A stretch of DNA of 64,000 nt from Candidatus Falkowbacteria bacterium (GTDB lineage: Bacteria > Patescibacteriota > Patescibacteriia > UBA11705 > JABHMO01). Of this stretch, positions 7,729-37,121 are shown piece after piece. The stretch covers positions 1 through 64,000 of the forward strand of contig JABJBF010000023.1 in assembly GCA_018665965.1 (NCBI GenBank), in the 5' to 3' direction. The notes beneath the pieces are model-generated. The model saw nothing but the letters and a program-made list of their open reading frames with translations. It was not told the DNA's origin and made no database searches. Position 1 is the first letter of the stretch. Each line of letters begins with the position of its first letter. Made by a program: the position numbers and the translations under genes.

Positions 7729-7835
7729 AGGGAAGTATAAACTCATGCTTCCTTTTTTTATTTTAAAAAGTTTTGATTTTCTGCTAAACTGAAGGGGTAG
7801 TTATTTGACAATTATAATACTATGAGGGGGACGGT

Positions 7836-18404: not shown

Positions 18405-19379
18405 ATGAAAAAGTCTGAATTTGATAAATTTGTAGCAAAATTGCTAGAAAAGGGTTTCGTTTATTCTCCAGTTAAAGATGGAGAAATGGTTTTAGTTAAA
18501 CAAATTTTTAAACCGGGGGATATGGACTGGTCTGGTGACATACCATTGAATTCATTCAAGTCAATTGTTTTGCCAGCTAAACAAGATATGGCGACATATT
18601 CCAAGGACGTAGCTAAAGTTATTAATGAAAAAATAAAGCCTATTTTTATTCTTGGATTAAATATTTTAGATTTACGAGCCTTGGCTTTATTTGAACAGGT
18701 TTTTGCTAAAGATTATTATTTTCAAAAGCGTCGACAATCCTTACATTATATTGGTTTAACTAATGGCATTGAGGATGATTTACGTAAATACAAAGTGTTT
18801 AATAAAAAATATGAAGAAGATGTGTTAGAGCATCTTATTTTTGATGTTTTTGTTGAAAGACAGAAGAGTGGTAATTTGATTTTGTTTTCCGGCTCGGAAA
18901 AAGGTCAACAGCTTCTGGAAAAAAGTAAAATTGAAGACTACGAAAATATTGAATTTGCTGGATTTATACCTGAGCATGGTCCCAATCCTTTGATTGAACA
19001 AAAAAAGCTAGCAATATTGAACAATCCTGACCACCCACTATGGGATAAATTAGCTAAAATTTGTCTTAGTTGCGGGAAGTGCTCAATCCATTGTCCAACC
19101 TGTTTTTGCTTTGACCAGAAGGATAAGGTTGAATTTGATCAAGTCGTGAAAACACGACAATGGACAACCTGTTTTTATCCAAAGTTTTCTGAAATAACGG
19201 GTGGTAATAAAGAATTGGATTCAGTAAAAAAGAAATTATATTTTTGGTATTATCATAAATTTGTACGCATTCCTGATGAGTTCGATTACTATGGTTGTGT
19301 TAGTTGTATGCGTTGTTACAAAACTTGCCCAGTTGAAATTAATATTGCTGAGAATTTGCAAGAATTGAAAAAAGTATGA
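18405..19379 (+). CDS. [NiFe]-hydrogenase group 3b-like iron-sulfur subunit (HydB/beta-like)
   Basis: Two ferredoxin-like Cys motifs 'CGKCSIHCPTCFC' and 'CVSCMRCYKTCP'. Lies in an operon with hydrogenase small and large subunits. Confidence 0.6.
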   Translation: MKKSEFDKFVAKLLEKGFVYSPVKDGEMVLVKQIFKPGDMDWSGDIPLNSFKSIVLPAKQDMATYSKDVAKVINEKIKPIFILGLNILDLRALALFEQVFAKDYYFQKRRQSLHYIGLTNGIEDDLRKYKVFNKKYEEDVLEHLIFDVFVERQKSGNLILFSGSEKGQQLLEKSKIEDYENIEFAGFIPEHGPNPLIEQKKLAILNNPDHPLWDKLAKICLSCGKCSIHCPTCFCFDQKDKVEFDQVVKTRQWTTCFYPKFSEITGGNKELDSVKKKLYFWYYHKFVRIPDEFDYYGCVSCMRCYKTCPVEINIAENLQELKKV

Positions 19380-20173
19380 AAAATCAATATGCCCTACAAC
19401 CAGCAAAGGTTATTAAAGTAGTTAAAGAAAATTCAATTACCAATACTTTTTATTTTAGTTTGGACAAGCAAAATGAATTAAAATTTTTGGCAGGGCAGTT
19501 TATGCAAATTGGCTTACCAGGTTTTGGTGAATGCCCTATTTCAATTTCTTCGAGCCCAAAGTTGTCAGATAAACATTTTTGTTTAACAATTCGTAGTGTT
19601 GGAGAATTAACTGCTAAATTAAATAACCTGAAGGTTGGCGATAAAGCTTTTGTGCGTGGACCTTTTGGTAACGGATTTCCTGAGGTTACTAAAAATTTAA
19701 TTCTGATCGGTGGTGGTTGTGGTTTTATTCCATTGCGAAGCGTGTTCGAAGAAAATCGCAATCGTAAAGATATTAAGCTTCAAGTGTTGGTTGGTTGTTC
19801 GACACAGGAATCACTAGTATTCAAAAGAGAGTATTCAAAAATAAAAAACAAACATGATTTTGGATTGATTTTGGAAAATGAAACTATTCCCGGGTTTGCT
19901 AAACAAAAAGGATTTGTTACGGACTTAATAAAGAAAAAGAAGTTATTGAAGAATTCGTTAGTGTTTGTCTGTGGGCCAGCGATAATGTACAAGTTCGTTG
20001 TGAAAGAACTTTTGGCCAAAAAGGTTGAGCCAGCTAATATGTATTTTTCATTGGAAAAAAGAATGCATTGCGGAGTAGGAGTGTGTCAGCATTGTGCTAT
20101 TGGGTCCAAGTATATTTGCAAAGATGGTCCTGTGTTTAATTATGAATTTTTAAGAAGTGTAAATTATTTTTAA
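19376..20173 (+). CDS. Hydrogenase FAD/NAD(P)-binding subunit with C-terminal [2Fe-2S] motif (HydG/gamma-like)
   Basis: Ferredoxin-NADP reductase-like fold ('LIGGGCGFIP'). C-terminal 'CGVGVCQHC...C' motif as in DHOD electron-transfer / sulfhydrogenase gamma subunits. Confidence 0.6.
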   Translation: MKNQYALQPAKVIKVVKENSITNTFYFSLDKQNELKFLAGQFMQIGLPGFGECPISISSSPKLSDKHFCLTIRSVGELTAKLNNLKVGDKAFVRGPFGNGFPEVTKNLILIGGGCGFIPLRSVFEENRNRKDIKLQVLVGCSTQESLVFKREYSKIKNKHDFGLILENETIPGFAKQKGFVTDLIKKKKLLKNSLVFVCGPAIMYKFVVKELLAKKVEPANMYFSLEKRMHCGVGVCQHCAIGSKYICKDGPVFNYEFLRSVNYF

Positions 20174-20193
20174 TGAGTGAATAGATAAAAAAT

Positions 20194-20667
20194 ATGCCAA
20201 CAATTTTCAAAGACAAGGTTCAAACTTATCATTTAATTACTGCGATTCTGGTAATCACCTGTTTGATTTTTCTTATAATTCTAATGTCGCAGTACACAGA
20301 TAAACCAATTGCTTTGGACAACGCTTCAAAAACTGTATTAGCAATTATTTTATTGTTGAATGTTTTCATTTTGGCGTCTTTTCGAGAGTTAAACATCAAG
20401 GTAAGTGATACGCATTTAATCTTCGGGTTTATGAAATTCCGCAAGCGTATTTTAATAAGTAAAATAAAAAAAATAGAATTTAGTGAGTATAAGTTTCAAA
20501 ATTATTTAGGTTACGGTATTCGATTTGGTCGTGACAAAACAGTTGGTTATGTGCCTCGGGGAGGTAAAGGTTTAGTTATTACAGTTGCTGGCCAAAGACG
20601 ACCATACTTTTTTGTAACCAATCGACCTGAAGAATTAAAGGCAATTTTGGAACAACGTAAAAAGTAA
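20194..20667 (+). CDS. Hypothetical membrane protein (2 TM + bPH-like C-terminal region)
   Basis: Hydrophobic N-terminal segments; no catalytic motifs. Confidence 0.4.
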   Translation: MPTIFKDKVQTYHLITAILVITCLIFLIILMSQYTDKPIALDNASKTVLAIILLLNVFILASFRELNIKVSDTHLIFGFMKFRKRILISKIKKIEFSEYKFQNYLGYGIRFGRDKTVGYVPRGGKGLVITVAGQRRPYFFVTNRPEELKAILEQRKK

Positions 20668-20700
20668 CCAGTAAAGTGTAAAGGGTAATAAGGGACTGTT

Positions 20701-21069
20701 ATGAATAAAATAAATAATTATTACGATTTAAAGGCTTGGCAACGTGCATATAAATTTACTTTAAAAGTTTATGAGGTGACATCGGATTTTCCTGCTGAAG
20801 AAAAATTTGGACTTATAAGTCAAATCCGAAGAGCTTCAATATCGATCACCGCCAACATTGCTGAAGGATTTTCTCGCTATTATTTCAAAGATAAGATTCG
20901 ATTTTATTATCAAGCGAGGGGTTCGTTGTCAGAAGTGCAAAGTTTTTTACTTGTTTCAAGAGGTCTTAATATATTAGAAAGCAGTTTTTGTGAAGAGTTA
21001 GTAAATCATGCAGATGAGGTGAAAAGACTTATAAATGGTTTGATAAAATCAATTCAAAAACAGTTGTGA
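20701..21069 (+). CDS. Four-helix-bundle protein (PF05635-like), second copy
   Basis: 'YDLKAWQRAYKFTLKVYEVTSDFP...ISQIRRASISITANIAEGFSR' resembles the 14610 ORF family. Confidence 0.55.
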   Translation: MNKINNYYDLKAWQRAYKFTLKVYEVTSDFPAEEKFGLISQIRRASISITANIAEGFSRYYFKDKIRFYYQARGSLSEVQSFLLVSRGLNILESSFCEELVNHADEVKRLINGLIKSIQKQL

Positions 21070-21102
21070 TTACTTTTTACCTTTTACATTTTACTTATTA
21101 CT

Positions 21103-21870
21103 ATGAATAACAAAATAAAAGTAGGAATATTCCCATTGACCGGCTGTGAAGGTTGCTGTGTTGCGATTTTAGATTTACCAAATAAGTTACTTGAATTGAA
21201 TGAAAAAATTGAAATAGTAAATTTTCGTTTATTTGAAGAGGACGAACACTCACCAGATGAAAAGTACGATATTGTTTTTGTTGAAGGTAGCCCTTTGACC
21301 ACGCGAGATATCAAACAGTTAAAGTTGGTTAGGAAAAATTCAAAGTATGTCATCTCAATTGGTAGTTGCGCACATATGGGTGGAATTTATCATTTAAAAA
21401 TGTATCAAGATAAAAACAAAATTCATGATTATGTTTATCAAGGTGAAAAGGGAATTGAGAATTTGGATGTCAAGCCACTAAGTGCATACGTTAAGGTGGA
21501 TTTTTCTATCCCAGGATGTCCAATAACAGGAGAAGAATTTTATGATTTTGTATACCAGCTATTAATTGGCAAAGAACCAGCTATTACTCAAAATCCAGTT
21601 TGTTATGAGTGCCAAGTGAGGGGACAAAAGTGTGTTTTGCAATATGGTGAGGTCTGTATGGGGCCAATTACGCAAGGCGGATGTGATGCTATTTGTACAA
21701 AATCAATGCAAGGCTGTTGGGGTTGTCGTGGTTTAGTTGAAGATGCGGAAGTAGATAATTTAATCAAAAAATTAAAAGAAAAATATTCAGATAAAGAAAT
21801 CTCTAAATTTTTTGAAGTTTTTGGCGTTAAAGAGTTAGTTTGGAAGAAAAGAAATAAACTTAGAAAATAA
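21103..21870 (+). CDS. [NiFe]-hydrogenase small subunit (group 3-type, HydD/delta-like)
   Basis: 'GIFPLTGCEGCCVAILDL' and 'GSCAHMGG' proximal-cluster motifs; additional Cys clusters at the C-terminus. Confidence 0.7.
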   Translation: MNNKIKVGIFPLTGCEGCCVAILDLPNKLLELNEKIEIVNFRLFEEDEHSPDEKYDIVFVEGSPLTTRDIKQLKLVRKNSKYVISIGSCAHMGGIYHLKMYQDKNKIHDYVYQGEKGIENLDVKPLSAYVKVDFSIPGCPITGEEFYDFVYQLLIGKEPAITQNPVCYECQVRGQKCVLQYGEVCMGPITQGGCDAICTKSMQGCWGCRGLVEDAEVDNLIKKLKEKYSDKEISKFFEVFGVKELVWKKRNKLRK

Positions 21871-21883
21871 TTAGAAATTATTT

Positions 21884-22906
21884 ATGGCATTAACCAAGCA
21901 AGAAGAAAAAATATTAAAGTCAATTGTAATTGCATCGGAAAATAATCCAGAAAAGCCCGAATTTCCAGTTGATGATCCGAAGTTTCCCGCTACTCCAACT
22001 TACAAAATAAAAGTACCTGGATTTAATAATGTTTGGTTGAAGGATGAAAGTCATAATCCAACGGGGACGCATAAAGATAGAATGGCTTGGGAAATGGTAG
22101 TGACTTATCGTGATTTCTTGTTGTCAAAAAAAGGGGGACAAATAAGTAAATTACCCGATGTTTCAATAATCTCATCAGGTTCAGCAGCGATTGCCATTCA
22201 GGTGCAATTGAAAAAGTATAAATTACCTAATTTGCGAGTACTAGTTGATAATCACATTGATGATGAAATTCTGAAATTTTTGTATAAAACTGGTTGCAAG
22301 ATATTTAAAACTGATTTAAGTGAAAAAGCGTTTTCTTGGAATGAAATTTTGCGATTAACAAAAAATAAAAATGGTTTCGATATTACGTCAAGTGAAGCAC
22401 TTGATCCGACAACTAGATATTATGACTGGTTAAGTTATGAAATTATTAACAGTTCTCCTGACTATTGTTTTGTTCCGTTTGGGTCGGGACATTTATTTGA
22501 AAATATTTTAAATATTAATAAACGGGAGGTTGTGACAAGTCATCATGACCCAAGGTTTAGGGGTAGAGTGAATAAATTGAGAGCTTGTAATTTTTTTGGG
22601 TCGACCACTAACAATCCGAAGACTAAGGCTAATAAATTGTTTTCCCCTCATTTGCCCTTTGTTAATTATGATGAGCAGTGGATTAAACTTTATCGCTATG
22701 CTGGTTATTGTGGTTCGAAATCGGATGTTTATAACGTTAAAGAACAATTTATTGATGAGGCCTTGAGAGTTGCTGCGTGCCAACAAATAGATTGTGAGGC
22801 CTCTGGTATTGCTGGGTTGGCGTTGATGCTTCAATTGAAAAACAAATTACCGAAAGATAAAAAAATGTTAATTGTTAATACAGGTAAAATAAAATATCCT
22901 TTATGA
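21884..22906 (+). CDS. PLP-dependent enzyme, fold type II (Trp-synthase-beta / threonine-synthase-like)
   Basis: 'KDESHNPTGTHKDRMAWEMV' matches the 'NPTGSFKDR' PLP-lysine motif. Embedded between the hydrogenase small and large subunit genes. Confidence 0.5.
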   Translation: MALTKQEEKILKSIVIASENNPEKPEFPVDDPKFPATPTYKIKVPGFNNVWLKDESHNPTGTHKDRMAWEMVVTYRDFLLSKKGGQISKLPDVSIISSGSAAIAIQVQLKKYKLPNLRVLVDNHIDDEILKFLYKTGCKIFKTDLSEKAFSWNEILRLTKNKNGFDITSSEALDPTTRYYDWLSYEIINSSPDYCFVPFGSGHLFENILNINKREVVTSHHDPRFRGRVNKLRACNFFGSTTNNPKTKANKLFSPHLPFVNYDEQWIKLYRYAGYCGSKSDVYNVKEQFIDEALRVAACQQIDCEASGIAGLALMLQLKNKLPKDKKMLIVNTGKIKYPL

Positions 22907-24180
22907 AAACTATTAAAATAAATCACATCGCCAAAACTGAAGGCCACCTGAGTTTCGTTGGGGCTTTGCTTGGTAATGATTTTGCTCAAGCTCGCGTGGA
23001 CACAGAAGAGGGAGCTCGTTTGATCGAAGGAATATTATTAAATAGAAAATATTACGAAGCTCCGATTGTAACTTCGCGGATTTGTGGTGTATGCCCGATT
23101 GTGCATAATTTAACTTCAATTAAGGCCGTTGAGGCAGCTTTTAGTGTCAGGGTAACTCCGGAAATAATATTGCTTCGTAAGATCCTAGAAAATGCGCAAA
23201 TAATTCATAGTCATGCAGTACATGCTTTCTTTTTCTCGTTTCCTGATATCGTAGGTGTTAGTAATAATTTTGCTTTGATAAATAAGTATACCAAAGAGTC
23301 AAAAATTGCTCTTCAAGTTCGTGATTGGGGAGTGCAGTTAGCGCGAGTTGTTGGAGGTCGAACCGTTCATCCGATTAATAGTGTAGTTGGTGGATTTAAT
23401 GTTGAGCCAGACTTTGTTGAACTTAAAGAATTAATGCAAAAACAAAAGCAAGTTCTATTACAAGCTAGGCAAATTCATGATGTGGTTTTGAAATATAAAT
23501 TACCAAAGTTTCAAAGACCAACAAATTATGTTTCTTTGAAAAATAAAAATGAATATGCAGTTTATGATGGGAGCATTTATTTCTCAGATAATGATAGTTA
23601 TGATAAAGTCGAGGATTTCCTAAGTGACGTGCAAGAAACTGTTTTACCATATGAAAAAGTTAAACGCTCACATCATATGAAAGAAACGTTCATGGTTGGC
23701 GCTCTTGCTCGAGTGAACAATAATTATGCTCAGCTGAACAAAGAGGCAAAAGCTTCTTGGAATAAGCTAAAAGTGAACTTGCCGTGTTATAATTCATTCT
23801 ATAATATAGTAGCCCAGACAACTGAGATTATTAATTCAATTGAGGAGATAAATAAACTTTTTGTCCAATATGAGAAACTGCGAGCAAAACCGAAGTTTAT
23901 GAAAAACCTAAAAGTTGATTTCATAGTTAAGGCTGGTAAGGGTTATGCTGTGATGGAGGCACCTCGTGGGATCTTGTATCATGAATATGAATTTAACAAG
24001 GTGGGCGAAATTATTCATTGCAATGTAATTACACCAACCGCTATGTTTTTGGCTAATTTGGAAAAAGATCTTGAGAAATATTTGCCGCAAATTAAAAAGT
24101 TGTCAGATAAGAAGAGAGATTCGTTAATAAAAACTTTGATTCGGGCATACGATCCATGTATCAGTTGCGCGACGCATTAA
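22903..24180 (+). CDS. [NiFe]-hydrogenase large subunit (group 3b-like, HydA/alpha)
   Basis: N-terminal 'RICGVCPIVH' (RxCGxCxxxH) and C-terminal 'DPCISCATH' (DPCxxCxxH) Ni-Fe ligating motifs. Confidence 0.85.
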   Translation: MKTIKINHIAKTEGHLSFVGALLGNDFAQARVDTEEGARLIEGILLNRKYYEAPIVTSRICGVCPIVHNLTSIKAVEAAFSVRVTPEIILLRKILENAQIIHSHAVHAFFFSFPDIVGVSNNFALINKYTKESKIALQVRDWGVQLARVVGGRTVHPINSVVGGFNVEPDFVELKELMQKQKQVLLQARQIHDVVLKYKLPKFQRPTNYVSLKNKNEYAVYDGSIYFSDNDSYDKVEDFLSDVQETVLPYEKVKRSHHMKETFMVGALARVNNNYAQLNKEAKASWNKLKVNLPCYNSFYNIVAQTTEIINSIEEINKLFVQYEKLRAKPKFMKNLKVDFIVKAGKGYAVMEAPRGILYHEYEFNKVGEIIHCNVITPTAMFLANLEKDLEKYLPQIKKLSDKKRDSLIKTLIRAYDPCISCATH

Positions 24181-24240: not shown

Positions 24241-25092
24241 TTACTGTTTTAGTTGCTTTTTTCTCTCGATATAGAGATCGCGAAGTTCTTCCATAGCGCT
24301 ATCGTTTCCGCTGTTGGCAGATGAAAGCGCTTTTGGGTCACCCTGGCTGATGGGCTTTGAGTCTGGCAAATTAACTCTTTCAATATCCCAATTATCTTGA
24401 GGATAAAGAACGATTTTTACAATTTCTGGCGTGATGGGCTGCAGTACTGTGTTGAAGTGTGGATGTCTACCAGGGGAGTCAAACATGTCAATTACGCCAT
24501 CTGGAAATTCATAGTACCAATACATAGGTGTTCCATCAACAGAGAAGAAACGTAGGTTTTTGTTTGGACGGACCTTATTGGAGATCCTTGGTTCACTTTC
24601 TGAAACATTCATTGAGGTGATGATTTTTTTAATTTCACCAAGGTCTGTGATGACGGGATTGCCAGTCTCGGGATGGAATTTCCATTCACAAGAAATTTCT
24701 TCATAACCGTTTAAGCCTGCAGCATAGCATTTATTTGCTTTTCCTGTAATGGGGTCAAATGAGCGATCTGCCTCAATGGAGTACATAAAGGCGCACGTGG
24801 TGAGATAGGCGATACCCGCCATGACCATGCCGATAGTTCGTCTTTTCCTATTCCAGGAGAAAAGCATCCCAATGCCGATTACCCCGACGACTGCCGGAAC
24901 AAAGGCGATTATACTTGCTAGCCAGTGATTCATTCCAGCAGAGGATTGCAAGGCGTCGGAAATCCACGGATAGATCATGAGAAAAGCAAATACAGTGCCA
25001 AAACGAATTAAGGCCATGAAAATCAGAATTGCAAGTGCGATACAGATAATACCTAGGATAAGTCTGGAGAATTTTAATCTTTTCGTCATCAC
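24241..25092 (-). CDS. Hypothetical integral membrane protein
   Basis: Four predicted TM helices in the N-terminal half; soluble C-terminal domain. Confidence 0.45.
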   Translation of the reverse strand: MMTKRLKFSRLILGIICIALAILIFMALIRFGTVFAFLMIYPWISDALQSSAGMNHWLASIIAFVPAVVGVIGIGMLFSWNRKRRTIGMVMAGIAYLTTCAFMYSIEADRSFDPITGKANKCYAAGLNGYEEISCEWKFHPETGNPVITDLGEIKKIITSMNVSESEPRISNKVRPNKNLRFFSVDGTPMYWYYEFPDGVIDMFDSPGRHPHFNTVLQPITPEIVKIVLYPQDNWDIERVNLPDSKPISQGDPKALSSANSGNDSAMEELRDLYIERKKQLKQ

Positions 25093-25189
25093 GACCTCCT
25101 TCTGTTAAAGATCAACCTTTCATACTAGTTTTATACATTTTAATGGTTTTGTCAAGTAAAAACCCACCTTGTCGAAGGTGGGTTTATTG

Positions 25190-27409
25190 TCAAATATTGC
25201 TTACATTGAAAACATGAAGGAGTCCCTTGTCTCCAATTGCGAGGTACTTGCCGTTTGGGCTCCATGAAAGTCTGACAGAATCTGAGACATCTGACTCCAT
25301 AACCAAGACGGCCTTTGTTTGTTGGTCCCTAATATCCATGACAAAGAGAGTATTGTACGAACCTGCTTTTTCATTAAGAGCTGTTTCGTGCTGAGGAGAA
25401 TTTTTATTGATAACAAGATGAGGTTTTTTAGTGGACCAAGTGTTTACATTATAGCCATAAAAGCCAATCGCACCATCTACGAGCTTTTTCTCGTAAATTG
25501 ATCCACTTTTCGCATTTACTGTAAAAATTGTGCCAGACGACAAAGCAATAACTGCTGTTTTGCCGTCTTTTAGCCACCAAAGATCTCTTGGTTCGTCACC
25601 TTTAAACCAGTGGAGTTTATTTCCAGAAGTTGTGTCCCAAATGGAGAAGCTACTTTCTCCGTTTTGTGGCGACTCTGATGAAATTAGATGCCCGCTCGTG
25701 TAGGCGAGTTTATGAATGTCAATCTCTCCTGGGCAAAAAGAATAATAAAGAGACTCGTCATCATCTCGACAAAACTTAAACTCTTTTAGAATTGTTCTGT
25801 CAGAAAGACTGACTTGGATTATTCTTTTTGAGCTTGCAGCAAAGACAGAGGAGTTGTTTACTGGGGTTATCGCGTCAGCTGTGAATGATTGAGTTTTCTT
25901 GGTTTTCGTATTGATAATGTAAATGTGAAAATTTCTACTGTACCCAGCGGATGCTTTAAGGACAATATAATCACCAAACCAACCAAGGAAACTAGCGGCT
26001 TGGGAGCATTCGACTTCCACCCTCCAGAGCTCTTTATCATTTGTTAACGAGTAAATTGCAATCTTGGCGTTTCCTCTTTCCAGTGCACAAGAATGTGAAT
26101 AATAGATTGCAATTTTGGTTTTGCTTTGAGACCAGATCATGTCGGTTATATAGTCGCTGTTATCGTAATTAGATTCAAGCTCATAAGTTGTGCTTTGAGG
26201 AACACCCTTAATAGTCATTTTTGATGAGGTGGTGATAGCCACTGCTTTGCTATCATTTGACCAACGGATGTAACCTGCACCATCACCCCCAGGTCTGTAA
26301 TATGCAATAGAAGTCCAGATAGTGGGTTTGATAATTTTGATGTTAGCAATCGCTGCTGCTGTTTTTTGCTTACTAGCAAGTTCAGCAGCTTTTTCTCGGG
26401 CACGATTTTCAGCTTCGCGTTTCTTATACTCAATTTGTTTTACTACTTCATCAGCTATGCGGTTTTCTTCGGCTGTTATTTGCTGTCTGGCAATTTTTGC
26501 TTGGCGTGTAGCCTCGGCGATTGCTTGTAGTCTGGCAGTCCTCTCTTGACTAGCAGCCTCTTCATCGGCTTGTTTCCTAGCAATTAACGCTTGGCGACGA
26601 GCTTCAGCATTAAGGGCTGCACGAGCCTGGGTATCTGCTAACGCTTTTTCTTTTGCTAGTTTTACCTGACGCTCTCGTTCTAACCGGTCAGCTTCAGCTT
26701 TTTTTTTACGCTCAATTTCCTTTTTTTCTCGCTCACGTTCCTCTTTACGAATATGTTTTTCGTAAATCTCATCAAGAGGAGTAAGCACAGTTTCCTTGTC
26801 TGTGATAACAAGATCTCTGGCTGTCGGTTGGATTCTATTAATTACAAGGTCAAGTTCATCAAGTAGTTTGTCGATTTCATCTTCAGGCATGGTGCTAAAC
26901 ATGGTGATGTCTAGATCAAGTAGTTTTTCAGTTCCTTCTGCGTCGACAATTGCCAGTTTTGTTTTTACTTTTTCCCTATTAGTAATTCCCCAGTAGGCCT
27001 CAGCTTTTTGAATTGCCTCGAGATTATGCTTGATTGAATTACTTGAAATTGCCTGATTGTATTCAACCAAGTTTCTACGGTTACGTTCTTGTTTGATTTC
27101 TTGAACAAAAATAGAAATTTTGTCTTTGTATGTAATAAGTGCGCCAGCCAAGGTTCTTTCTTTTCTTTCGAGTTTTCTGCGAAGATGCTTTACATGTTCA
27201 AGCTTTTCTTCGGAAATTTCTTTTTTTGACTTTGGTGGAGCTTCTTTTTCTTGTGAGAGGGGAGCTGGTTCAGTATTGGAGTTAGGGGAGTTTTTTTCAG
27301 CGACTTCAGGACGAGTTGACTTATTTTTCTTGGCCTTTTTGTCTTTGTTACAAGAACAAGCAAAAATGATAATAATAACAGTAATAATTGTCTTTAGCCA
27401 TCTGGACAT
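25190..27409 (-). CDS. Lipoprotein with shared ~60-aa domain, long K/E/A/R-rich coiled coil and C-terminal beta-propeller (TolB/WD40-like)
   Basis: Lipobox 'IFACSC'. Domain 'LLDLDITMFSTMPEDEIDKLLDELDLVINRIQPTARDLVITDKETVLTPLDEIY'. Beta-propeller-like repeats ('WSPNGKYLAIGD'). Promoter TTGACA-17-TAAGAT and SD 'aaggagg' upstream. Confidence 0.6.
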   Translation of the reverse strand: MSRWLKTIITVIIIIFACSCNKDKKAKKNKSTRPEVAEKNSPNSNTEPAPLSQEKEAPPKSKKEISEEKLEHVKHLRRKLERKERTLAGALITYKDKISIFVQEIKQERNRRNLVEYNQAISSNSIKHNLEAIQKAEAYWGITNREKVKTKLAIVDAEGTEKLLDLDITMFSTMPEDEIDKLLDELDLVINRIQPTARDLVITDKETVLTPLDEIYEKHIRKEEREREKKEIERKKKAEADRLERERQVKLAKEKALADTQARAALNAEARRQALIARKQADEEAASQERTARLQAIAEATRQAKIARQQITAEENRIADEVVKQIEYKKREAENRAREKAAELASKQKTAAAIANIKIIKPTIWTSIAYYRPGGDGAGYIRWSNDSKAVAITTSSKMTIKGVPQSTTYELESNYDNSDYITDMIWSQSKTKIAIYYSHSCALERGNAKIAIYSLTNDKELWRVEVECSQAASFLGWFGDYIVLKASAGYSRNFHIYIINTKTKKTQSFTADAITPVNNSSVFAASSKRIIQVSLSDRTILKEFKFCRDDDESLYYSFCPGEIDIHKLAYTSGHLISSESPQNGESSFSIWDTTSGNKLHWFKGDEPRDLWWLKDGKTAVIALSSGTIFTVNAKSGSIYEKKLVDGAIGFYGYNVNTWSTKKPHLVINKNSPQHETALNEKAGSYNTLFVMDIRDQQTKAVLVMESDVSDSVRLSWSPNGKYLAIGDKGLLHVFNVSNI

Positions 27410-27487
27410 TTGGGCCTCCTTGTCATTTTGTTGTAAAAGTTCATAATCATTGTATCTTACTAATATTTTACGTTATTGTCAATAATA

Positions 27488-27513
27488 AAACCAGCACGGT
27501 GTGGTGCTGGTTT
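27488..27513 (-). terminator. Hairpin terminator (accagcac-ggtgtg-gtgctggt), copy 1
   Basis: 8-bp GC-rich stem followed on the minus strand by a T-run; immediately downstream of the 606-aa lipoprotein gene. Confidence 0.6.
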
Positions 27514-27520
27514 GTGTTAT

Positions 27521-29341
27521 CTACTCATCTTCAAAATACTCATTGTATAGTTTTTCTAATGGTATTTTTTGTGTGTCATTTTCTTTAATCACGAGTTCCT
27601 GGGCGTTTGGTTGAATTTTTGTGATAACCAAGTCCAATTGAGCAATCATCTGGTCCAATTTGTTCTCGTCTAAGCTGTCCAGAATTTTTGCATCAAGCTC
27701 CAGTTGTAATTGAGTGCCTTCAGACTCCACTAAACTTTTGCTAGTAGTTAAAAGCTCATGTTTAATAAAGTCCATGTAGGCCAAAGCTTTTTGCATCGCT
27801 ACAAGATAATTGTTTATCCGGTCATTCTTGACCGCTTCTTTATAGCTTGCAATATTGTTGTGTAGTTTCAAGTCAGTGATTGTTGATTTGTATCTGTCTA
27901 CGTCAGTTTGGAAGGATCGAAGATCATCTGATAGTGATTCTTCCTTTTTTTGTAATTGTTTTATGAGAGAGCGAACAGTGGTTAATTTTTTTACTGTTTC
28001 TTCTTTGATTGTCAGCTGATGTTCTGTATTATTGGAAGTTCTCTTTTTGTTGGCGACGATGATTCTATAAGAAGAGTCAATCTCCCAAATTTCTACAAAG
28101 CCTTCGTCGTCATTCACTTCAGTCGCCAGGGCGAATTGATTGAATTCCGGATTCCAGGCAAAATCATTAATTTTTTCTGAACTTTCATGAAAAGTTAGAT
28201 TCGAATTCAGGTTGTCCCAAAAATAAATTTTATTTTTGGTAATGACTGCTAAAATATTGCCATCTTTGTTCCAGGCAATATCATTACTCATAATATCCAG
28301 TGTTTTTTGGAGTTCCAATTTTTCATTGAACAGTAAAATATTGTTCATGAATTGAACTGCCAGAACATCACCTGATACATTCCATTTTAGGGTCACTGCT
28401 TCACTGCCAGAGTGATTGTAGGTGTAAAGCTGTTTACCTGAGAAACAACTATCCCAAAGACTTAGAATGTTGTCAGAACTTAAAACTGTTATTTTCTTAG
28501 TTCCGGGTTGCCACTCTGCAGCCATAATTTTGTAATCATGACTGCATTGTTTTATGGAACAATGAGGCCCCTTCCCGTCGTCGGCTTGATTGAAAATCTT
28601 TAACAGATTTCCTTTTGTGGACAAGAAAATTGTCATTGCGCCGAGGTGTGTATTTCCTTCTTTTGTTTCTTCTGTTTTTCGCACAGAATAACTTTTTACT
28701 TCATGAAAAAAGTGATTTTTCGAACTAGACTCTATGAAAGTCTCCATCCCTGCACGACTGCTGGAGGAAAAGAAGTATGTCCCATCAAAGTAGATTATTT
28801 TTGAATCGAGAGCGTGGGTGACATATACCTTGAGGTCAGCTGAGATTGTTTGAGCGGAGCCACTTGCTATTTCTTTTAAGTAATGTTTTAGTCTAAGGTC
28901 GTAGACTTTTGACAAGAATCTCACATCGTAATCGTTCTCGTGTTTTTTCTTGCAGTCATTGCAACGTTCATAGTCAGAGTAACGACATTCGCGCTGACAG
29001 CTATATTTAGAAATTTCGTGATCAATAAAGGCTAAGTAACTACCATCAGTACTGAATTTTATGTCGGTGAGTTGCTTGCCATCATGAACAAATTGTCGAG
29101 TTTTGTTTTCAGTGTTCCAGATGAAAGCTGTGTCTCGGTAGTGTCTAGATGCAATTAGTTTTCCATCAGGATGCCAGTCAATTCCATAAACTGCTTGTGT
29201 GTGCTTGAATTTAGCAAGTAGTTTAGCGGAGCTGTTGGGTTTTGAATCTATGACTTCATTTGGCTGTTCATTTTTACTGCAGGTCACCGAGAAGAAAATA
29301 ATAACAAGTAGGAGAACTATTGTATTCAAGTAATGTTTCAT
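27521..29341 (-). CDS. Lipoprotein with N-terminal beta-propeller (TolB/WD40-like), coiled coil and C-terminal shared ~60-aa domain
   Basis: Lipobox 'SVTCSK'. Repeats 'DWHPDGKLIAS', 'FSTDGSYLAF'. C-terminus 'LELDAKILDSLDENKLDQMIAQLDLVITKIQPNAQELVIKENDTQKIPLEKLYNEY'. Confidence 0.6.
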   Translation of the reverse strand: MKHYLNTIVLLLVIIFFSVTCSKNEQPNEVIDSKPNSSAKLLAKFKHTQAVYGIDWHPDGKLIASRHYRDTAFIWNTENKTRQFVHDGKQLTDIKFSTDGSYLAFIDHEISKYSCQRECRYSDYERCNDCKKKHENDYDVRFLSKVYDLRLKHYLKEIASGSAQTISADLKVYVTHALDSKIIYFDGTYFFSSSSRAGMETFIESSSKNHFFHEVKSYSVRKTEETKEGNTHLGAMTIFLSTKGNLLKIFNQADDGKGPHCSIKQCSHDYKIMAAEWQPGTKKITVLSSDNILSLWDSCFSGKQLYTYNHSGSEAVTLKWNVSGDVLAVQFMNNILLFNEKLELQKTLDIMSNDIAWNKDGNILAVITKNKIYFWDNLNSNLTFHESSEKINDFAWNPEFNQFALATEVNDDEGFVEIWEIDSSYRIIVANKKRTSNNTEHQLTIKEETVKKLTTVRSLIKQLQKKEESLSDDLRSFQTDVDRYKSTITDLKLHNNIASYKEAVKNDRINNYLVAMQKALAYMDFIKHELLTTSKSLVESEGTQLQLELDAKILDSLDENKLDQMIAQLDLVITKIQPNAQELVIKENDTQKIPLEKLYNEYFEDE

Positions 29342-29418
29342 TAAGGCCTCCTCAATGGGTTGTTGTCAAAGTCCAATTAGGTTATTTTCCCTTATTTTTT
29401 ATGATTTGTCAATGAAAA

Positions 29419-29444
29419 AACCAGCACGGTGTGGTGCTGGTTTT
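29419..29444 (-). terminator. Hairpin terminator (accagcac-ggtgtg-gtgctggt), copy 2
   Basis: Identical hairpin to 27488-27513; downstream of the 182-aa lipoprotein gene. Confidence 0.6.
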
Positions 29445-29456
29445 GATGAGTTGTTT

Positions 29457-30005
29457 TCAAAGTTCATTGAAAAGTTTTTCTAGTGGCGTTTTGGGTGTGT
29501 TTTCATCATTTAATACCAGGTTATCTGCTGTAGGCTGGATTTTGTCAATCACTAAATTCAATTGCTTAAGTGTTTCTTCCAGGTCGGCATTTTCTATGCT
29601 TTCAAGCATTTCAATGTCAAGCTCAAGTTGCATCTGAATACCATATAATTCAATGGCGGCTTGTTCAGTTTTTTTATCTTCTTCCTTAAGTATTTTTAAA
29701 TATGCTTCAACTTTTTGGTAGGCTGTTAGATGGATCATTAAAGGCTTGTTGTTTTCTGCCTCAGCATAAGACGAAATTCCACGTTTGGATTTAATCCCTT
29801 TGATGGCTTTTTTGAATTCAGTTTTTTTGTCTTTGAACTTTTTTATTGTGTTGTCAATGTTGACATGCTTCTCATGTAGTTTTTCCATTAAGGAAATTAC
29901 AGTTTCATATTTTTCCTTAGTTTCCTTTTTTGCATCTCTTTTGTTGCAGGTGGGTAAACAAAGAAGAAATATTAATGTAAAAAAACATATTGTATGATGT
30001 CGCAT
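29457..30005 (-). CDS. Small lipoprotein with C-terminal shared ~60-aa domain
   Basis: Lipobox 'LCLPTCNK'. C-terminus 'MQLELDIEMLESIENADLEETLKQLNLVIDKIQPTADNLVLNDENTPKTPLEKLFNEL'. Confidence 0.55.
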   Translation of the reverse strand: MRHHTICFFTLIFLLCLPTCNKRDAKKETKEKYETVISLMEKLHEKHVNIDNTIKKFKDKKTEFKKAIKGIKSKRGISSYAEAENNKPLMIHLTAYQKVEAYLKILKEEDKKTEQAAIELYGIQMQLELDIEMLESIENADLEETLKQLNLVIDKIQPTADNLVLNDENTPKTPLEKLFNEL

Positions 30006-30119
30006 GTTTCCCCCTTGTTTTGTTGTTAAAGTTCAATTAGGTTATTTTCCCTTATTTCTAGTTATTTGTCAATGTTTTCTGAATTTAAAAACTCGACAAT
30101 AAGATTGTCGAGTCCACGT

Positions 30120-30890
30120 CTACTTCTGAATAAAATATTTATTCCAAGTGCTTTTGAGATCTGAGGAACCTCTGTTGTAATCATTGATTACGTATTCCTC
30201 TGCTACAGGCTTGATTTTTGTGATGACATTATCAAGCTTTTTAATCAAATCGTCCATTTCTTCTTGATCTGTCGCTTTTAGCATTGTTAGATCAAGGTCA
30301 AGATTAGCCCGTATTCCTTGAAGCTCAACACCCGCTCTGGCAACTGCTCTTTTCTCAGCAGTCACGATTTCGAGATAAGCTTGTGCTTTGGCAATTATCT
30401 TGAGTTTGGTGTTGCTTTCTTGATTCCTTACTGCATCATTGAAGCTCCTGATTTGCCCACGTCTAATGTTACTCTGAATTGTCCCAACATTGCTAGCGAT
30501 TGTTGCTTTGAATTCTGTTTCAGCAACTCCCAGTTTAGTTATTTTTTCGGACAATTTTTCTTGCAGTTCTACTACTTCCTTTCTCTTTTGCTTATACTCA
30601 GAAGCAATTTTGGAATCACCGGTGAGGATGTGACCGTTGCCAGATATTTGAATGATTAAAAGGACAATCATAAAAATAATCACAACTGGAGCAACAAAGA
30701 ACATCAATACTAACTGGACTTTCATCTTATCATCATCTTTTTCTTTTTCTCTTTTTTTTCTTTCTTTTTCTTTCTCTTGTAGAGCATTATTCGCCTTAAT
30801 GTGATCTATATACCGTTGGCGATTTCTTTCTTGCTCAACACTGAACCCCTCTCTGCGTGCTCGGCTTTCATCTGCACTTGTCCAGACCAT
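30120..30890 (-). CDS. Membrane-anchored coiled-coil protein with C-terminal variant of the shared domain
   Basis: Internal TM 'VLMFFVAPVVIIFMIVLLII'. C-terminus 'LQGIRANLDLDLTMLKATDQEEMDDLIKKLDNVITKIKPVAEEYVINDYN'. Terminator hairpin at 30089-30113. Confidence 0.5.
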   Translation of the reverse strand: MVWTSADESRARREGFSVEQERNRQRYIDHIKANNALQEKEKERKKREKEKDDDKMKVQLVLMFFVAPVVIIFMIVLLIIQISGNGHILTGDSKIASEYKQKRKEVVELQEKLSEKITKLGVAETEFKATIASNVGTIQSNIRRGQIRSFNDAVRNQESNTKLKIIAKAQAYLEIVTAEKRAVARAGVELQGIRANLDLDLTMLKATDQEEMDDLIKKLDNVITKIKPVAEEYVINDYNRGSSDLKSTWNKYFIQK

Positions 30891-31023
30891 AACCTCCTCC
30901 TATATAAAGCATTTCTGCTTGTTAACGTTCATTTTTATTAATATAACAATAAAGACCTCTTTTGTCAATAAAGTAATTTTAATTACAATAAATATTATGC
31001 TATAATTAATATATCAAAAAATT

Positions 31024-31278
31024 ATGCATGATCTTCATGTAGCGGACAAAATCCACAAGCTTGTGCTGGAACAAGCGAAAAAAAATAACCTCAAGCAGGT
31101 TAAGAAGATTTTGATTGATTTGGGTTCAGTGATCGAACATGGTGCAGATATTAGTTCTGAAAATTTAGAGTTCAATTTACAGATGTTGAGTAGAAATACA
31201 GTTGCCGAGGGCGCAAAAGTTAAAATTAACAAAGTTGACGGTAGCTCCTGGGAATTGATTTCGATTGCAGGGGATTAA
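31024..31278 (+). CDS. HypA-like protein (hydrogenase nickel-incorporation factor N-terminal domain) lacking the C-terminal zinc-finger cysteines
   Basis: 'MHDLHVADKIHKLVLEQAKKNNLKQVKKILIDLGSV...LEFNLQMLSRNTVAEGAKVKI' aligns with the HypA N-terminal domain (MHE.S.A..I......A......V..V.L.IG......S.L.F.F......VAEGA.L.I). No CxxC pairs. Confidence 0.4.
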   Translation: MHDLHVADKIHKLVLEQAKKNNLKQVKKILIDLGSVIEHGADISSENLEFNLQMLSRNTVAEGAKVKINKVDGSSWELISIAGD

Positions 31279-33985: not shown

Positions 33986-35530
33986 ATGGGACCTGTAGTA
34001 TTATTAATTCTAGATGGATGGGGAATTGCACCAAAAAGCAAAGGCAATGCAATTGAGTTGGCGAAAAAGCCAAACTTTGATTTGCTTTGGAAAAAGTATC
34101 CGCATACAGAATTAAAAGCTCATGGTCTTAATGTTGGTTTACCAAAACATTATGTTGGGAATTCTGAGGCTGGGCATATTAATATAGGCGCAGGAAGAGT
34201 TGTCAAAGACGACGCAGTTGAGATTTCCGAAGACATTTTGAATGGACGATTTAAGAAAAATTCAGCTTTAAATCAAACAATTGAAGTAGTCAAAAAAAAT
34301 AAATCAGCCTTGCACTTGATGGGAATGGTTTCAGATGGAGAAAGTCCACATTCATCTTTGGATCATTTGTATTCTTTGGTTGATTTAGCTTACAGTAAAG
34401 GGCTTCGGAAAATATATTTACACTTGTTTACGGATGGGCGTGATGCGCCGCAGTTTCATGCTTTGAAAATTGTTGATGAAGTATTGAAAAATGTTTACGG
34501 TAAAGCTGTAATTGTTAGTTTGATTGGTAGGTTTTATGCTATGGATCGAGGTAAAAACTGGAAACGAACTCAAAAAGCTTACGACTGCATGACTATTGGA
34601 AAAGGAGCATTTTTTAATGATTATCGTGATGCGATCGTACATGCTTATAATCAAAAGCAAACGGATGAGTTTATCGAGCCGTGTGTTATTGGTAAAGACA
34701 AAAAGCAGACAGAAAAGACTAGAATAAAAGAAAAAGATGGAGTGATATTTTTCAATGCGCGTTCTGATCGCTCCAGGCAGTTGAGCAAATGTTTTGTTCA
34801 ACATGATTTTAATAGAATGAATAAAGGTGCTTTTCGTCGATCTAAAGTATACAAAGGGTTGGAGTTTTGTGCTTTAACTGATTTTGGCCCAGATTTAGAT
34901 CATATTTTAACTGCCTATCCTGCTGCTGAATTAAATGCAACTTTGCCAATAATTTTGGATGACAAAAAACAGCTTTATATTGCAGAAACAGAAAAATATG
35001 CCCATGTTACTTACTTTATGAATGGAGGTTCAGCTGATCCGGTAAACGGTGAAGCAAGGCTTAAAATTAATTCACCTCGAGTGAAAAGTTATGCACTTAA
35101 ACCTGAAATGAGTGTTTACAAAATAACTAACAAAGTAAAACAATTTATTGAAAGAAAAAAATTCGATTTCTTTGCAATTAATTTTGCTAATCCAGACATG
35201 ATAGGTCATACGGGTAATTTGAAGGCAGTCGTGGAGGCAGTCAACCATGTAGATAAATGTATTGGTGAATTGACTAAGCTAGTATTAAAAAATAAAGGTG
35301 TTATAATTATAACTGCTGACCATGGTAATGCTGAAAAAATGATTGATTTAAAAACAAATGAGATTTGGACTGGGCATACTACTAATCCAGTCCCGTTTGT
35401 TCTAGTTTCTGATGAACACAAGGGGGTTAAATTAAGAAAAGGTATTCTAGGTGATATTGCGCCAACAGTATATGATTTATATAATCAAGAAAATATTTCA
35501 AAAAAAATAAAAAAATCTCTAATAAAATAA
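33986..35530 (+). CDS. gpmI: 2,3-bisphosphoglycerate-independent phosphoglycerate mutase, copy 1
   Basis: 'LLILDGWGIAP', 'GNSEAGHINIGAGR' (Ser nucleophile), 'ADHGN'; 514 aa. Confidence 0.8.
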   Translation: MGPVVLLILDGWGIAPKSKGNAIELAKKPNFDLLWKKYPHTELKAHGLNVGLPKHYVGNSEAGHINIGAGRVVKDDAVEISEDILNGRFKKNSALNQTIEVVKKNKSALHLMGMVSDGESPHSSLDHLYSLVDLAYSKGLRKIYLHLFTDGRDAPQFHALKIVDEVLKNVYGKAVIVSLIGRFYAMDRGKNWKRTQKAYDCMTIGKGAFFNDYRDAIVHAYNQKQTDEFIEPCVIGKDKKQTEKTRIKEKDGVIFFNARSDRSRQLSKCFVQHDFNRMNKGAFRRSKVYKGLEFCALTDFGPDLDHILTAYPAAELNATLPIILDDKKQLYIAETEKYAHVTYFMNGGSADPVNGEARLKINSPRVKSYALKPEMSVYKITNKVKQFIERKKFDFFAINFANPDMIGHTGNLKAVVEAVNHVDKCIGELTKLVLKNKGVIIITADHGNAEKMIDLKTNEIWTGHTTNPVPFVLVSDEHKGVKLRKGILGDIAPTVYDLYNQENISKKIKKSLIK

Positions 35531-35537
35531 ACAAAAT

Positions 35538-37121
35538 ATGCAAAAAATACCTAAACCAGTTGTACTTATAATTCTTGATGGTTGGGGAATTGCTCCAGCG
35601 TCAGAAGGTAATGGTGTGACTTTGGCCAAAACACCTAATTTTGATAAATTAGTAGCAAATTATCCTGCTATGACTTTGTTAGCTTCAGGTGAGGCTGTGG
35701 GGTTATCCTGGGGTGAAATGGGGAATTCGGAAGTTGGTCATTTGAATTTAGGTGTAGGGAAGATTTTTTATCAAAACTTACCTAGGATTAGCAAGGCAAT
35801 TGAGGATGAGACAATCTTTGAAAATGAAACTCTCAAGAAGGCAATTGCTCATGTACAAAAACATAATTCAAAATTGCATCTTGTGGGGTTGATGAGTGAA
35901 GGTAAGGTTCATGGTATGAACAGTCATTGTTATGGTCTTTTGGAATTAGCCAAGAAAAATAAAGTTAAAGAAGTGTATGTACATGCATTTTTAGATGGCC
36001 GTGATTCACCATATAATAGTGGTGAAGGATTCATTCAAGAACTTGAGGAAAAATTCAAGGAAATTGGTGTTGGCGTAGTGGCTTCTCTGCATGGACGTAT
36101 GTTTGCTATGGATCGTGATAATCGTTGGGAAAGGATAGAAAAAACATATCGAGCAATGGTCGAAGGAAAAAGTGAAGAGTATTACAAAAATCCAGTAAAA
36201 GCAGTTCAGGGTTCTTATAAGCATAAAGTTTATGATGAAGAGTTTGAGCCAGTTGTAATTGGTAAAGATGGAAGGCCAACTTCTGTAGTTGAAAAAAACG
36301 ATGCGGTGATATATTTCAATTATCGAGCTGATCGTGCTAGGCAGTTGACTAAAGCTTTTGTTATGGATGATTTTGATAAGTTTCAGAGAAGTGAAAAAAT
36401 TGCAAATTTGTTTTTTGCTACAATGACAGAATATGAGGAGGGCCTACCAGTAGAAGTTATTTTTCCAAAAGAAGAAATCAAGATGTCACTACCAAAAATT
36501 TTAAGTCAAAAAGGGTACAAACAGTTGCATATTGCGGAAACTGAAAAGTATGCCCATGTTACTTTTTTCTTTAGTGGTGGAACGGAGGATCCATACGAAG
36601 GCGAAGACAGAATTGTAATTCCTTCTCCAAAGGTGGCAACATATTCAGAAAAGCCGGAAATGTCAGCCAAGAAAGTTACTGATGATTTGATGAAAGAGAT
36701 TATGAGTGAGAAACATGATTTTATTGTGGTTAATTATGCCAATCCTGACATGGTTAGTCACACTGGTGAAATTAAGCCAACAGTTCAATCAATTGAGTAT
36801 ACTGATAAATTGTTGGGCGATGTTGTGAATTTAATTTTATCAAAAGGCGGGCAGGCAATGATAGTTGCAGACCACGGTAATGCTGAAGAGTTAGTGAACT
36901 TACAAACAGGTGAAAAAGACAAGGAGCATAGTACTAATCCTGTGCCGTGTCTAGTGATTGGCAAACAATTTGAAGGAAAAACAATCGAGGATGTTCAGTT
37001 GGTAGGCAATGATTTAAGTTTAGTTCAGCCGATTGGTCTTTTGTCTGATGTTGCACCAACGATTTTAAAAATGATGAATATTGATATTCCTGATGAAATG
37101 TCAGGGCGGTCGTTAATTTAG
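35538..37121 (+). CDS. gpmI: 2,3-bisphosphoglycerate-independent phosphoglycerate mutase, copy 2 (tandem paralog)
   Basis: 'LIILDGWGIAP', 'GNSEVGHLNLGVGK', 'ADHGN'; 527 aa. Confidence 0.8.
   Translation: MQKIPKPVVLIILDGWGIAPASEGNGVTLAKTPNFDKLVANYPAMTLLASGEAVGLSWGEMGNSEVGHLNLGVGKIFYQNLPRISKAIEDETIFENETLKKAIAHVQKHNSKLHLVGLMSEGKVHGMNSHCYGLLELAKKNKVKEVYVHAFLDGRDSPYNSGEGFIQELEEKFKEIGVGVVASLHGRMFAMDRDNRWERIEKTYRAMVEGKSEEYYKNPVKAVQGSYKHKVYDEEFEPVVIGKDGRPTSVVEKNDAVIYFNYRADRARQLTKAFVMDDFDKFQRSEKIANLFFATMTEYEEGLPVEVIFPKEEIKMSLPKILSQKGYKQLHIAETEKYAHVTFFFSGGTEDPYEGEDRIVIPSPKVATYSEKPEMSAKKVTDDLMKEIMSEKHDFIVVNYANPDMVSHTGEIKPTVQSIEYTDKLLGDVVNLILSKGGQAMIVADHGNAEELVNLQTGEKDKEHSTNPVPCLVIGKQFEGKTIEDVQLVGNDLSLVQPIGLLSDVAPTILKMMNIDIPDEMSGRSLI

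Follow-up and report, generated by a model that had tools for sequence, protein, structure and literature searches.

A conserved gene array encoding predicted membrane-anchored proteins with a shared three-helix module in Candidatus Falkowbacteria

Genes of the array

A stretch of 64,000 nucleotides (nt) from a Candidatus Falkowbacteria bacterium (positions 1 to 64,000 of contig JABJBF010000023.1, assembly GCA_018665965.1; hereafter the window) carries five adjacent genes on its minus strand, four of which encode proteins sharing a module of about 155-160 amino acids (aa). Candidatus Falkowbacteria, which are ultra-small, belong to the Patescibacteria, also called the candidate phyla radiation (CPR), a lineage generally regarded as having no classical outer membrane, which bears out the kind of host that an earlier note on this sequence had supposed. 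That note had described four consecutive minus-strand genes of 739, 606, 182 and 256 aa, and these were confirmed at exactly the coordinates it gave. A further gene outside those coordinates, E283, is the fifth of the locus. The locus is conserved and lineage-typical in Candidatus Falkowbacteria and consists of five separately transcribed genes, all of whose products are predicted to be tethered to the cytoplasmic membrane:

24241-25092, minus: E283, 283 aa, polytopic membrane protein without the module (from the open reading frame (ORF) listing)
25190-27409, minus: A739, 739 aa, module, long helix and propeller
26735-27229, minus: module of A739 (residues 61-225)
27521-29341, minus: B606, 606 aa, propeller and C-terminal module
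27524-28009, minus: module of B606 (residues 445-606)
29457-30005, minus: C182, 182 aa, signal peptide with Cys, then the module (residues 25-182) alone
30120-30890, minus: D256, 256 aa, transmembrane (TM) helix, then the module (residues 93-256)

For E283, the ATG at 25089 is a likelier start codon than the listed GTG, which lies three bases upstream of it. Database entries for A739, B606, C182 and D256 are named as hypothetical or WD40 proteins (e.g., MBT5503462-5). Contigs L001-L003, which include ENA and JGI assemblies, were 99.99% identical to the window and add no population-level variation.

The shared module

The module could be aligned as one region in all four proteins. C182 matched the other three at composition-adjusted BLASTP E values of 1e-30, 7e-24 and 3e-24, with 32-39% identity and almost no gaps. 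The homology claimed by the earlier note therefore stood, but its size of about 60 aa did not, the pattern given being the C-terminal third of about 155 aa. When a profile of the four modules was run against six frames of the 64-kb window it matched these four genes only, with no match to A739's own charged helix, so the similarity is not an artefact of coiled-coil composition.

Of 1.84 billion cluster representatives searched exhaustively by HMMER with the same profile, 302 proteins matched at E<=1e-3; 117 of them reached E<=1e-10 and 24 reached E<=1e-30. The matches listed were almost all full-length, covering profile positions of about 3-160. Word-indexed homology searches with C182 or with a 51-sequence module alignment returned almost only the query itself, and the family is visible by exhaustive profile search only. 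Four polar positions were conserved in at least 90% of the 51 aligned sequences: K22, Q73, Y78 and D106 (C182-module numbering). Conservation extended to A77-Y78 and to the IQKA.AY and IQP.A motifs; these are polar or Pro positions and do not follow a heptad.

The probability that the module is a low-complexity or coiled-coil artefact and that the four proteins are non-homologous, the outcome that the earlier note had named as fatal to its proposal, is virtually nil. As would suit an artefact, the module is helical throughout, with an abundance of K, E and L, and a profile search of PDB sequences with it found short, weakly matching coiled coils only (best E 0.055). Against it stand the significant BLASTP scores over some 155 nearly gap-free residues, the small number of almost exclusively full-length matches, the specificity within the window and the conserved non-heptad positions, and the artefact was rejected.

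No match on the module of the four proteins was found in the curated libraries Pfam-A, NCBIfam, PADLOC and PHROGs. The single PHROGs match was weak (E 0.0018, a family of unknown function) and fell outside the module, in D256; with nothing from PADLOC either, the searches gave no hint that the family derives from defence systems or phages. A scan of viral contigs found no relatives, a Pfam scan of 76 longer family members left the module covered by no model, and a literature search found no description of the family. At the level of sequence, the module is a new domain family of 302 cluster representatives without annotation.

AlphaFold2, run with the 51-sequence alignment, modelled the module at a predicted local distance difference test (pLDDT) score of 92 and a predicted template-modelling score (pTM) of 0.81. 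The model comprises two antiparallel helices of 50 residues each (2-51 and 63-112; about 7.5 nm), a shorter helix (119-136) and a short C-terminal helix. The predicted fold is a generic elongated antiparallel three-helix coiled coil, assigned to no known family. A Foldseek search of the PDB ranked CdvB and CdvB2, ESCRT-III proteins of archaea, highest (probability up to 0.99, template-modelling score about 0.5, E 0.05-0.8). None reached E<=1e-3, and the ESCRT-III matches were no better than those to generic coiled coils. Fold searches were thus uninformative on the ancestry of the module.

Domains attached to the module among the 76 longer members included WD40 propellers (at least six), ankyrin repeats (three), TPR and lytic transglycosylase (SLT). 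Among the 147 best representatives, 31 had a strict and four a loose lipobox, about 98 had one to six hydrophobic segments before the module, and 82 had the module at the C-terminus. A predicted lipoprotein signal or TM anchor nearly always precedes the module.

Architecture and anchoring of the five proteins

A739 is ordered as follows: lipoprotein signal (1-18, IIFAC), disordered linker (19-60), module (61-225), long helix (222-355) and WD40-type propeller (358-735). In an AlphaFold2 model built with 15 homologs the linker spanned 18-60 and the long helices ran from 222 to 289 and from 304 to 355. This segment is 78% A/E/K/R/Q/D and 14% hydrophobic, with a second half rich in Ala and Gln; its roughly 134 residues would measure about 20 nm by calculation if they form one continuous helix. 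Long K/E/A/R-rich helices had been attributed to both propeller proteins, an attribution that failed for B606, since the helix occurs in A739 only. The modelled A739 propeller matched NLE1/Rsa4, ODA16, G-beta and WDR5 at E values of 2e-17 to 1e-13, and the protein scored 24.8 bits on PF12894 (cutoff 22.9). Two cysteines, C547 and C559, were invariant in 15 A739-type propellers, a pair that fits an exported protein.

B606 begins with a signal peptide containing Cys (SVTC), followed by a WD40 propeller (about 27-443) and the module (445-606). It passed both PF00400 (42.4 bits, cutoff 27) and PF12894 (42.9 bits, cutoff 22.9), and its propeller contains a Cys-rich insert, SCQRECRYSDYERCNDC. Some 420 residues separate the anchor from the module, which sits at the opposite end of the protein and is thus more than a membrane-proximal spacer.

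The A739 and B606 propellers showed no significant similarity to each other, and that of A739 has orthologs in other module proteins. Since the two propellers are unrelated and are placed in opposite order, C-terminal in A739 and N-terminal in B606, the module has been combined with different propellers, in agreement with the domain shuffling originally suggested. Of the label TolB/WD40-like, the WD40 half was supported by Pfam thresholds and fold matches, and the TolB half was not. A TolB identity was rejected, as no TolB_N, PD40 or MotA_ExbB match occurred in the five proteins and the top 50 listed structural matches were WD40 proteins, with no TolB among them.

D256 has a charged N-terminus (1-55), one TM helix (about 57-83) and the module (93-256); from the positive charge of the N-terminal flank, the module is predicted to face outward. 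E283 has about three N-terminal TM helices and a C-terminal domain of about 170 aa, and found no match in Pfam, NCBIfam or PDB. Its TM region resembles (E 1e-5) the anchor of P0030, a family member in which TM helices accompany the module.

Three lipobox signal peptides had been proposed. That of A739 (IIFAC) is canonical, but those of B606 (SVTC) and C182 (LPTC) carry a non-canonical Thr at -1. The idea of a cell-surface family was kept as regards location, since the signals with Cys, the Cys pair in the propeller and the charged flank of D256 indicate membrane-anchored proteins that are very likely extracytoplasmic; the recent amplification that went with it was dropped, as set out below.

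Related loci

A contig scan with the four-module pattern returned nothing, and one with a 13-sequence alignment returned three Falkowbacteria genomes and four metagenome loci. All three GTDB genomes were Candidatus Falkowbacteria: UBA11705, RIFOXYC2_FULL_48_21 and CG10_big_fil_rev_8_21_14_0_10_39_11. Wherever a locus was long enough to judge, its module genes stood side by side on one strand, in the following numbers:

Window: 4
L005/L012/L017: 2
L008: at least 6, along with a propeller fragment where the contig ends
L011/L016: 2
L014: at least 4
L015: 4

The apparent singletons, L004 and L007, sit on contigs of about 3.7 kb. The earlier note had proposed a check for copy-number variation, and the gene number did differ between related genomes in the same chromosomal slot. 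Loci that are distant, of higher GC content or from outside Falkowbacteria also had adjacent module genes: L010 (51% GC) encodes proteins of 674 and 199 aa, L019 (52% GC) proteins of 632 and 188 aa, and L018 proteins of 741, 716 and 392 aa. CheW and PAS-domain proteins are encoded in L010 as well.

The make-up of the array recurred in other Falkowbacteria: proteins with anchor and module, proteins with anchor, module, stalk and propeller, and the 283-aa membrane protein. E283 has orthologs (41-47% identity) in three other Falkowbacteria genomes, at L014, L011 and L015, each of them within the array or at its end; together with the likeness of its TM region to a module-family anchor, this makes E283 a conserved member of the locus. 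At 4893-5683 of L015 (Falkowbacteria UBA11705), a second E283-like gene is split into overlapping ORFs of 101 and 191 aa, likely as a frameshifted pseudogene or an assembly error.

The order hydrogenase operon, array, hypA-pgk was found in the window and in L011. Partial versions of this order occurred elsewhere: the hydrogenase adjoins the array in L014, hypA-pgk does so in L004 and pgk in L015. The arrays of L005, L008 and the distant loci are not beside hydrogenase genes, and the array has promoters of its own on the opposite strand, so the conserved slot is read as synteny and not as function.

Three proteins with a module and a charged helix, at 3131-4438 of L005 and at 7444-9756 and 11894-13105 of L015, end in C.CP...C...C....CP.HH.PL. 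This Cys/His-rich motif replaces the propeller in L005_435 and L015_403 and follows it in L015_770. It is possibly a metal- or disulfide-stabilised tip domain.

Promoters, terminators and the leader motif

Each of the five genes has its own TTGACA-type promoter and its own hairpin terminator. The elements, several of them in duplicated cassettes, are listed in order of position:

25102-25113, minus: E283 leader motif GATCTTTAACAG, 21 nt upstream of the start codon
25150-25155, minus: E283 -35 hexamer TTGACA, read from sequence
25158-25182, minus: terminator after A739, cccacc-ttcgacaa-ggtggg and T run, read from sequence
27431-27442, minus: A739 leader motif GAACTTTTACAA, 33 nt upstream of the start codon
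27454-27482, minus: A739 promoter, TTGACA, 17-nt spacer, TAAGAT
27476-27513, minus: repeat D3 copy 1, B606 terminator (hairpin 27488-27513) and A739 -35 box
29349-29414, minus: repeat D1 copy 1, B606 promoter (-35 box 29407-29412) and 5' leader with motif GGACTTTGACAA at 29363-29374
29406-29443, minus: repeat D3 copy 2, C182 terminator and B606 -35 box
30009-30074, minus: repeat D1 copy 2, C182 promoter (-35 box 30067-30072) and 5' leader with motif GAACTTTAACAA at 30023-30034
30087-30112, minus: terminator after D256, ctcgacaa-tcttat-tgtcgag and T run, read from sequence
30919-30930, minus: D256 leader motif GAACGTTAACAA, 40 nt upstream of the start codon
30940-30968, minus: D256 promoter, TTGACA, 17-nt spacer, TATATT, with TG before the -10 box

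The near-identical regions reported upstream of B606 and C182 proved to be a block of 66 nt (D1) with 83% identity between copies. The hairpin accagcac/gtgctggt does occur twice, after B606 and after C182, within the 38-nt D3 copies, which are 95% identical. At 898-6042 of L008, six paralogs in a row each end in a near-constant terminator hairpin, AAACCGGC(C/T)TCA(A/C/T)CGCCGGTTTT, whose flanks and loop are like those of the window's AAACCAGCACCACACCGTGCTGGTTTT. It may be more than a generic terminator.

The leader motif, G..C.TT.ACA[AG], was found 21-40 nt upstream of the start codon in all five genes. Elsewhere in the window it occurred three times on both strands together, each time inside a gene. 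It was present at a similar position in L004, L005 (three of three), L008 (four of six, and one more at 72 nt), L014 and L015. Between genomes the cassettes differ except for the -35 box, the Shine-Dalgarno sequence and the leader motif. The motif may be a family-specific control element, acting as an operator just downstream of the promoter or as an unstructured signal in the leader. The 5' leaders folded no more stably than shuffled sequence and had no common RNA structure, which makes a riboswitch-like element unlikely.

Age of the paralogs

Identity at third codon positions among the window modules was 32-36%, i.e., saturated. In a neighbour-joining tree A739 fell among stalk-and-propeller proteins from other genomes, and D256 likewise joined proteins that other genomes encode; only B606 and C182 paired, and weakly (38%). 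The L008 paralogs fell into at least three clades. Saturation and grouping across genomes mean that the duplications are old, which overturns the view of a recently amplified family; the age of the duplications can therefore not be read from the near-identity of the promoter and terminator cassettes. The same contrast was seen in L008, where the upstream regions of g5 and g7 are identical at 98 of 106 positions and their modules are only 27% identical. Within-genome likeness of the cassettes may be kept by gene conversion confined to intergenic DNA.

Comparison with known systems

Like TolA (domain II) and TonB, A739 has an N-terminal anchor, a long helix rich in Ala, Glu, Lys and Arg and a distal globular domain, and its proposed role is to reach through the envelope; a relative, g6 of L008, has a Pro-rich stretch instead of the helix. 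Sequence similarity to TolA or TonB was not detectable, no TolQR/ExbBD motor genes occur in the locus, and the 155-aa module has no counterpart there. In contrast to the hosts of TolA and TonB, CPR bacteria are regarded as having no outer membrane to reach. The charged and Ala-rich composition of A739 222-355 and its long, uninterrupted predicted helices recall ER/K single alpha-helix spacers, whereas the Ala/Gln-rich second half is unlike these and the segment could be a dimeric coiled coil.

As in other bacterial WD40 proteins, B606 passes PF00400 and the A739 propeller model matches WD40 structures (E 2e-17). Here, however, the propellers are predicted to be exported and lipid-anchored and are fused to the module, and in A739 to a long helix as well. 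Wall-less or host-associated bacteria such as Borrelia and Mycoplasma have tandem families of paralogous surface lipoproteins that are lipid-anchored and mostly helical, have their own promoters, vary in copy number and diverge quickly. The Falkowbacteria array shares these features of anchored helical paralogs with separate promoters, variable copy number and quick divergence, but has no sequence relationship to those families; its paralogs are ancient, their architectures are conserved, and no machinery for phase or antigenic variation was seen in the array. Overall, envelope-spanning tethers such as TolA and TonB and the surface-lipoprotein families of host-associated bacteria come closest in proposed function, and the parts are structurally familiar (a three-helix coiled coil, an ER/K-like helix and WD40); the domain family is undescribed, and the conserved locus and the cis-signature are distinctive.

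Proposed function

The reading preferred here, at a probability of roughly 45%, is that the array encodes a co-regulated, co-assembling envelope scaffold that displays WD40 propellers, with the module as its assembly domain. In such a scaffold the paralogs would associate through the module beside the membrane, probably together with E283, and the module-only subunits C182 and D256 (with E283) would form the base. The A739 helix would act as a rigid spacer of about 20 nm, in the style of TolA domain II or an ER/K single alpha-helix, keeping its propeller well clear of the membrane. In B606 another WD40 propeller, unrelated to the first, would sit close to the membrane, between anchor and module. 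The propellers would provide the surfaces that bind components of the envelope, or else a partner or host cell. Extracytoplasmic location, co-assembly, the spacer role and propeller binding are inferred. The scaffold is supported by the adjacency of a long and a short module gene in distant lineages, which argues that the paralogs work together, by the place of the module at the far end of B606, by E283 as a conserved partner and by the leader motif shared by five genes, which implies common control.

Several observations weigh against this scaffold. Plain tandem duplication would produce the same adjacency of paralogs, and with a promoter and a terminator for each gene there is no operon to fix stoichiometry. 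Between the window and L014, identity was 66% for HydA, 47% for E283 and 30-41% for the modules, a gradient that fits independent surface proteins too. The 20-nm spacer is calculated from a helix of medium confidence (pLDDT about 52-75 at 222-310, about 70-88 to 355). B606 and C182 fail the strict lipobox [LVI][ASTVI][GAS]C, and D256 has no lipobox.

The proteins could instead be surface lipoproteins or adhesins that act independently and evolve fast, a variable repertoire for host attachment or evasion of phages or predators, with the module as a common stalk and no mutual assembly. This is a serious if somewhat unlikely alternative. Separate transcription units, a module gene number that varies between genomes from two to at least seven, divergence of the modules faster than that of neighbouring genes, and varied distal domains (WD40, ankyrin, TPR, SLT, Cys-rich and Pro-rich) would all be expected of it. 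It fits less well with paralogs that are ancient and of architectural types recurring across genomes, or with C182 and D256, which consist of anchor and module and have no obvious binding domain. The long-plus-short pairing kept in distant lineages and the common control implied by the leader motif also count against it, and no simple-sequence tracts or inversion signals of phase variation were seen in the array. A more detailed form of the scaffold reading is speculative and improbable: the module would be the unit of an extracytoplasmic, membrane-bound lattice or filament (a hairpin polymer on the outside) built of several paralogs and E283 under a leader-motif operator, with propellers on 20-nm stalks organising the envelope or host contact, and the long-plus-short pairs elsewhere would be simpler forms of it.

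Polymerisation is also the core of another proposal, that the module is an ESCRT-III/PspA/Vipp1-like hairpin whose polymers would shape or repair the membrane from its outer face. The best Foldseek matches were CdvB and CdvB2, and the long antiparallel hairpin followed by shorter helices gives a similar helix order; those matches were statistically insignificant, and no Snf7 or PspA_IM30 Pfam match was found at E<=1 in the array proteins or at E<=1e-3 in the 76 relatives. Moreover, ESCRT-III and PspA act from the cytoplasmic side, whereas the module follows secretion signals or TM anchors, the opposite topology. Such a role is very improbable, and membership in the ESCRT-III/PspA family was rejected, given the insignificant fold matches, the absent profile match and the predicted export. 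A tie to the NiFe hydrogenase or HypA, as a tether or maturation scaffold, or a Tol-like energised envelope system, is extremely improbable. In its favour, the hydrogenase operon and hypA-pgk flank the array in the window and in L011, the hydrogenase adjoins it in L014 and hypA in L004, and an A/E/R/K-rich helix with a propeller superficially recalls TolA plus TolB. However, arrays occur away from hydrogenase genes, and that of the window is on the opposite strand under its own promoters. One source labels the hydrogenase "sulfhydrogenase subunit alpha", a type which we take to be cytoplasmic, and the array proteins carry export signals. As for a Tol-like system, the five proteins had no Pfam match to MotA/ExbB/TolQ, TolB_N or PD40, and the propellers match WD40 proteins and not TolB.

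Other genes of the window

The following genes and gene groups were observed elsewhere in the window:

10813-13728, plus: 971-aa ORF with matches to the shoulder domain of Major Vault Protein (PF11978, E 3e-28) and to a vault repeat (PF17795, E 3.5e-9)
18405-24180, plus: NiFe hydrogenase operon, with the large subunit bearing the sulfhydrogenase label given above
20701-21069: 122-aa protein of the 23S-rRNA-IVP/bAvd-like four-helix-bundle type, between hydrogenase subunit genes
21884-22906: 340-aa pyridoxal-phosphate-dependent (PALP) enzyme, between hydrogenase subunit genes
31024-31278, plus: 84-aa HypA-family protein
33986-35530 and 35538-37121, plus: tandem genes for cofactor-independent phosphoglycerate mutase (iPGM_N and Metalloenzyme), directly after pgk and enolase
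42979-43857, minus: lone N6/N4 DNA methylase gene (PF01555, E 3e-53) among plus-strand genes

The vault-like ORF lies in a stretch of raised GC content (0.43-0.47, vs. about 0.35 around it) and may have been horizontally acquired. The HypA-family protein starts with MHDLHV and has no Cys, hence none of the CxxC motifs of the zinc site; proteins 57-61% identical to it are encoded beside module arrays in two other Falkowbacteria loci.

Significance

CPR/Patescibacteria make up a large share of bacterial diversity. To our knowledge, little is known of the surface structures behind their attachment apart from type IV pili. A preprint describes all cultivated members as living attached to other microbes (bioRxiv 10.1101/2024.11.25.624915). 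The locus offers a concrete, conserved candidate for a surface system, with a multi-gene architecture, a fixed position in Falkowbacteria and a cis-regulatory signature. It also shows regulatory DNA that is near-identical between neighbours beside coding sequences that have diverged past synonymous saturation. With the leader motif as a marker, a regulon could be defined, and the long helix of A739 predicts densities of about 20-30 nm that would be looked for in cryo-tomograms.

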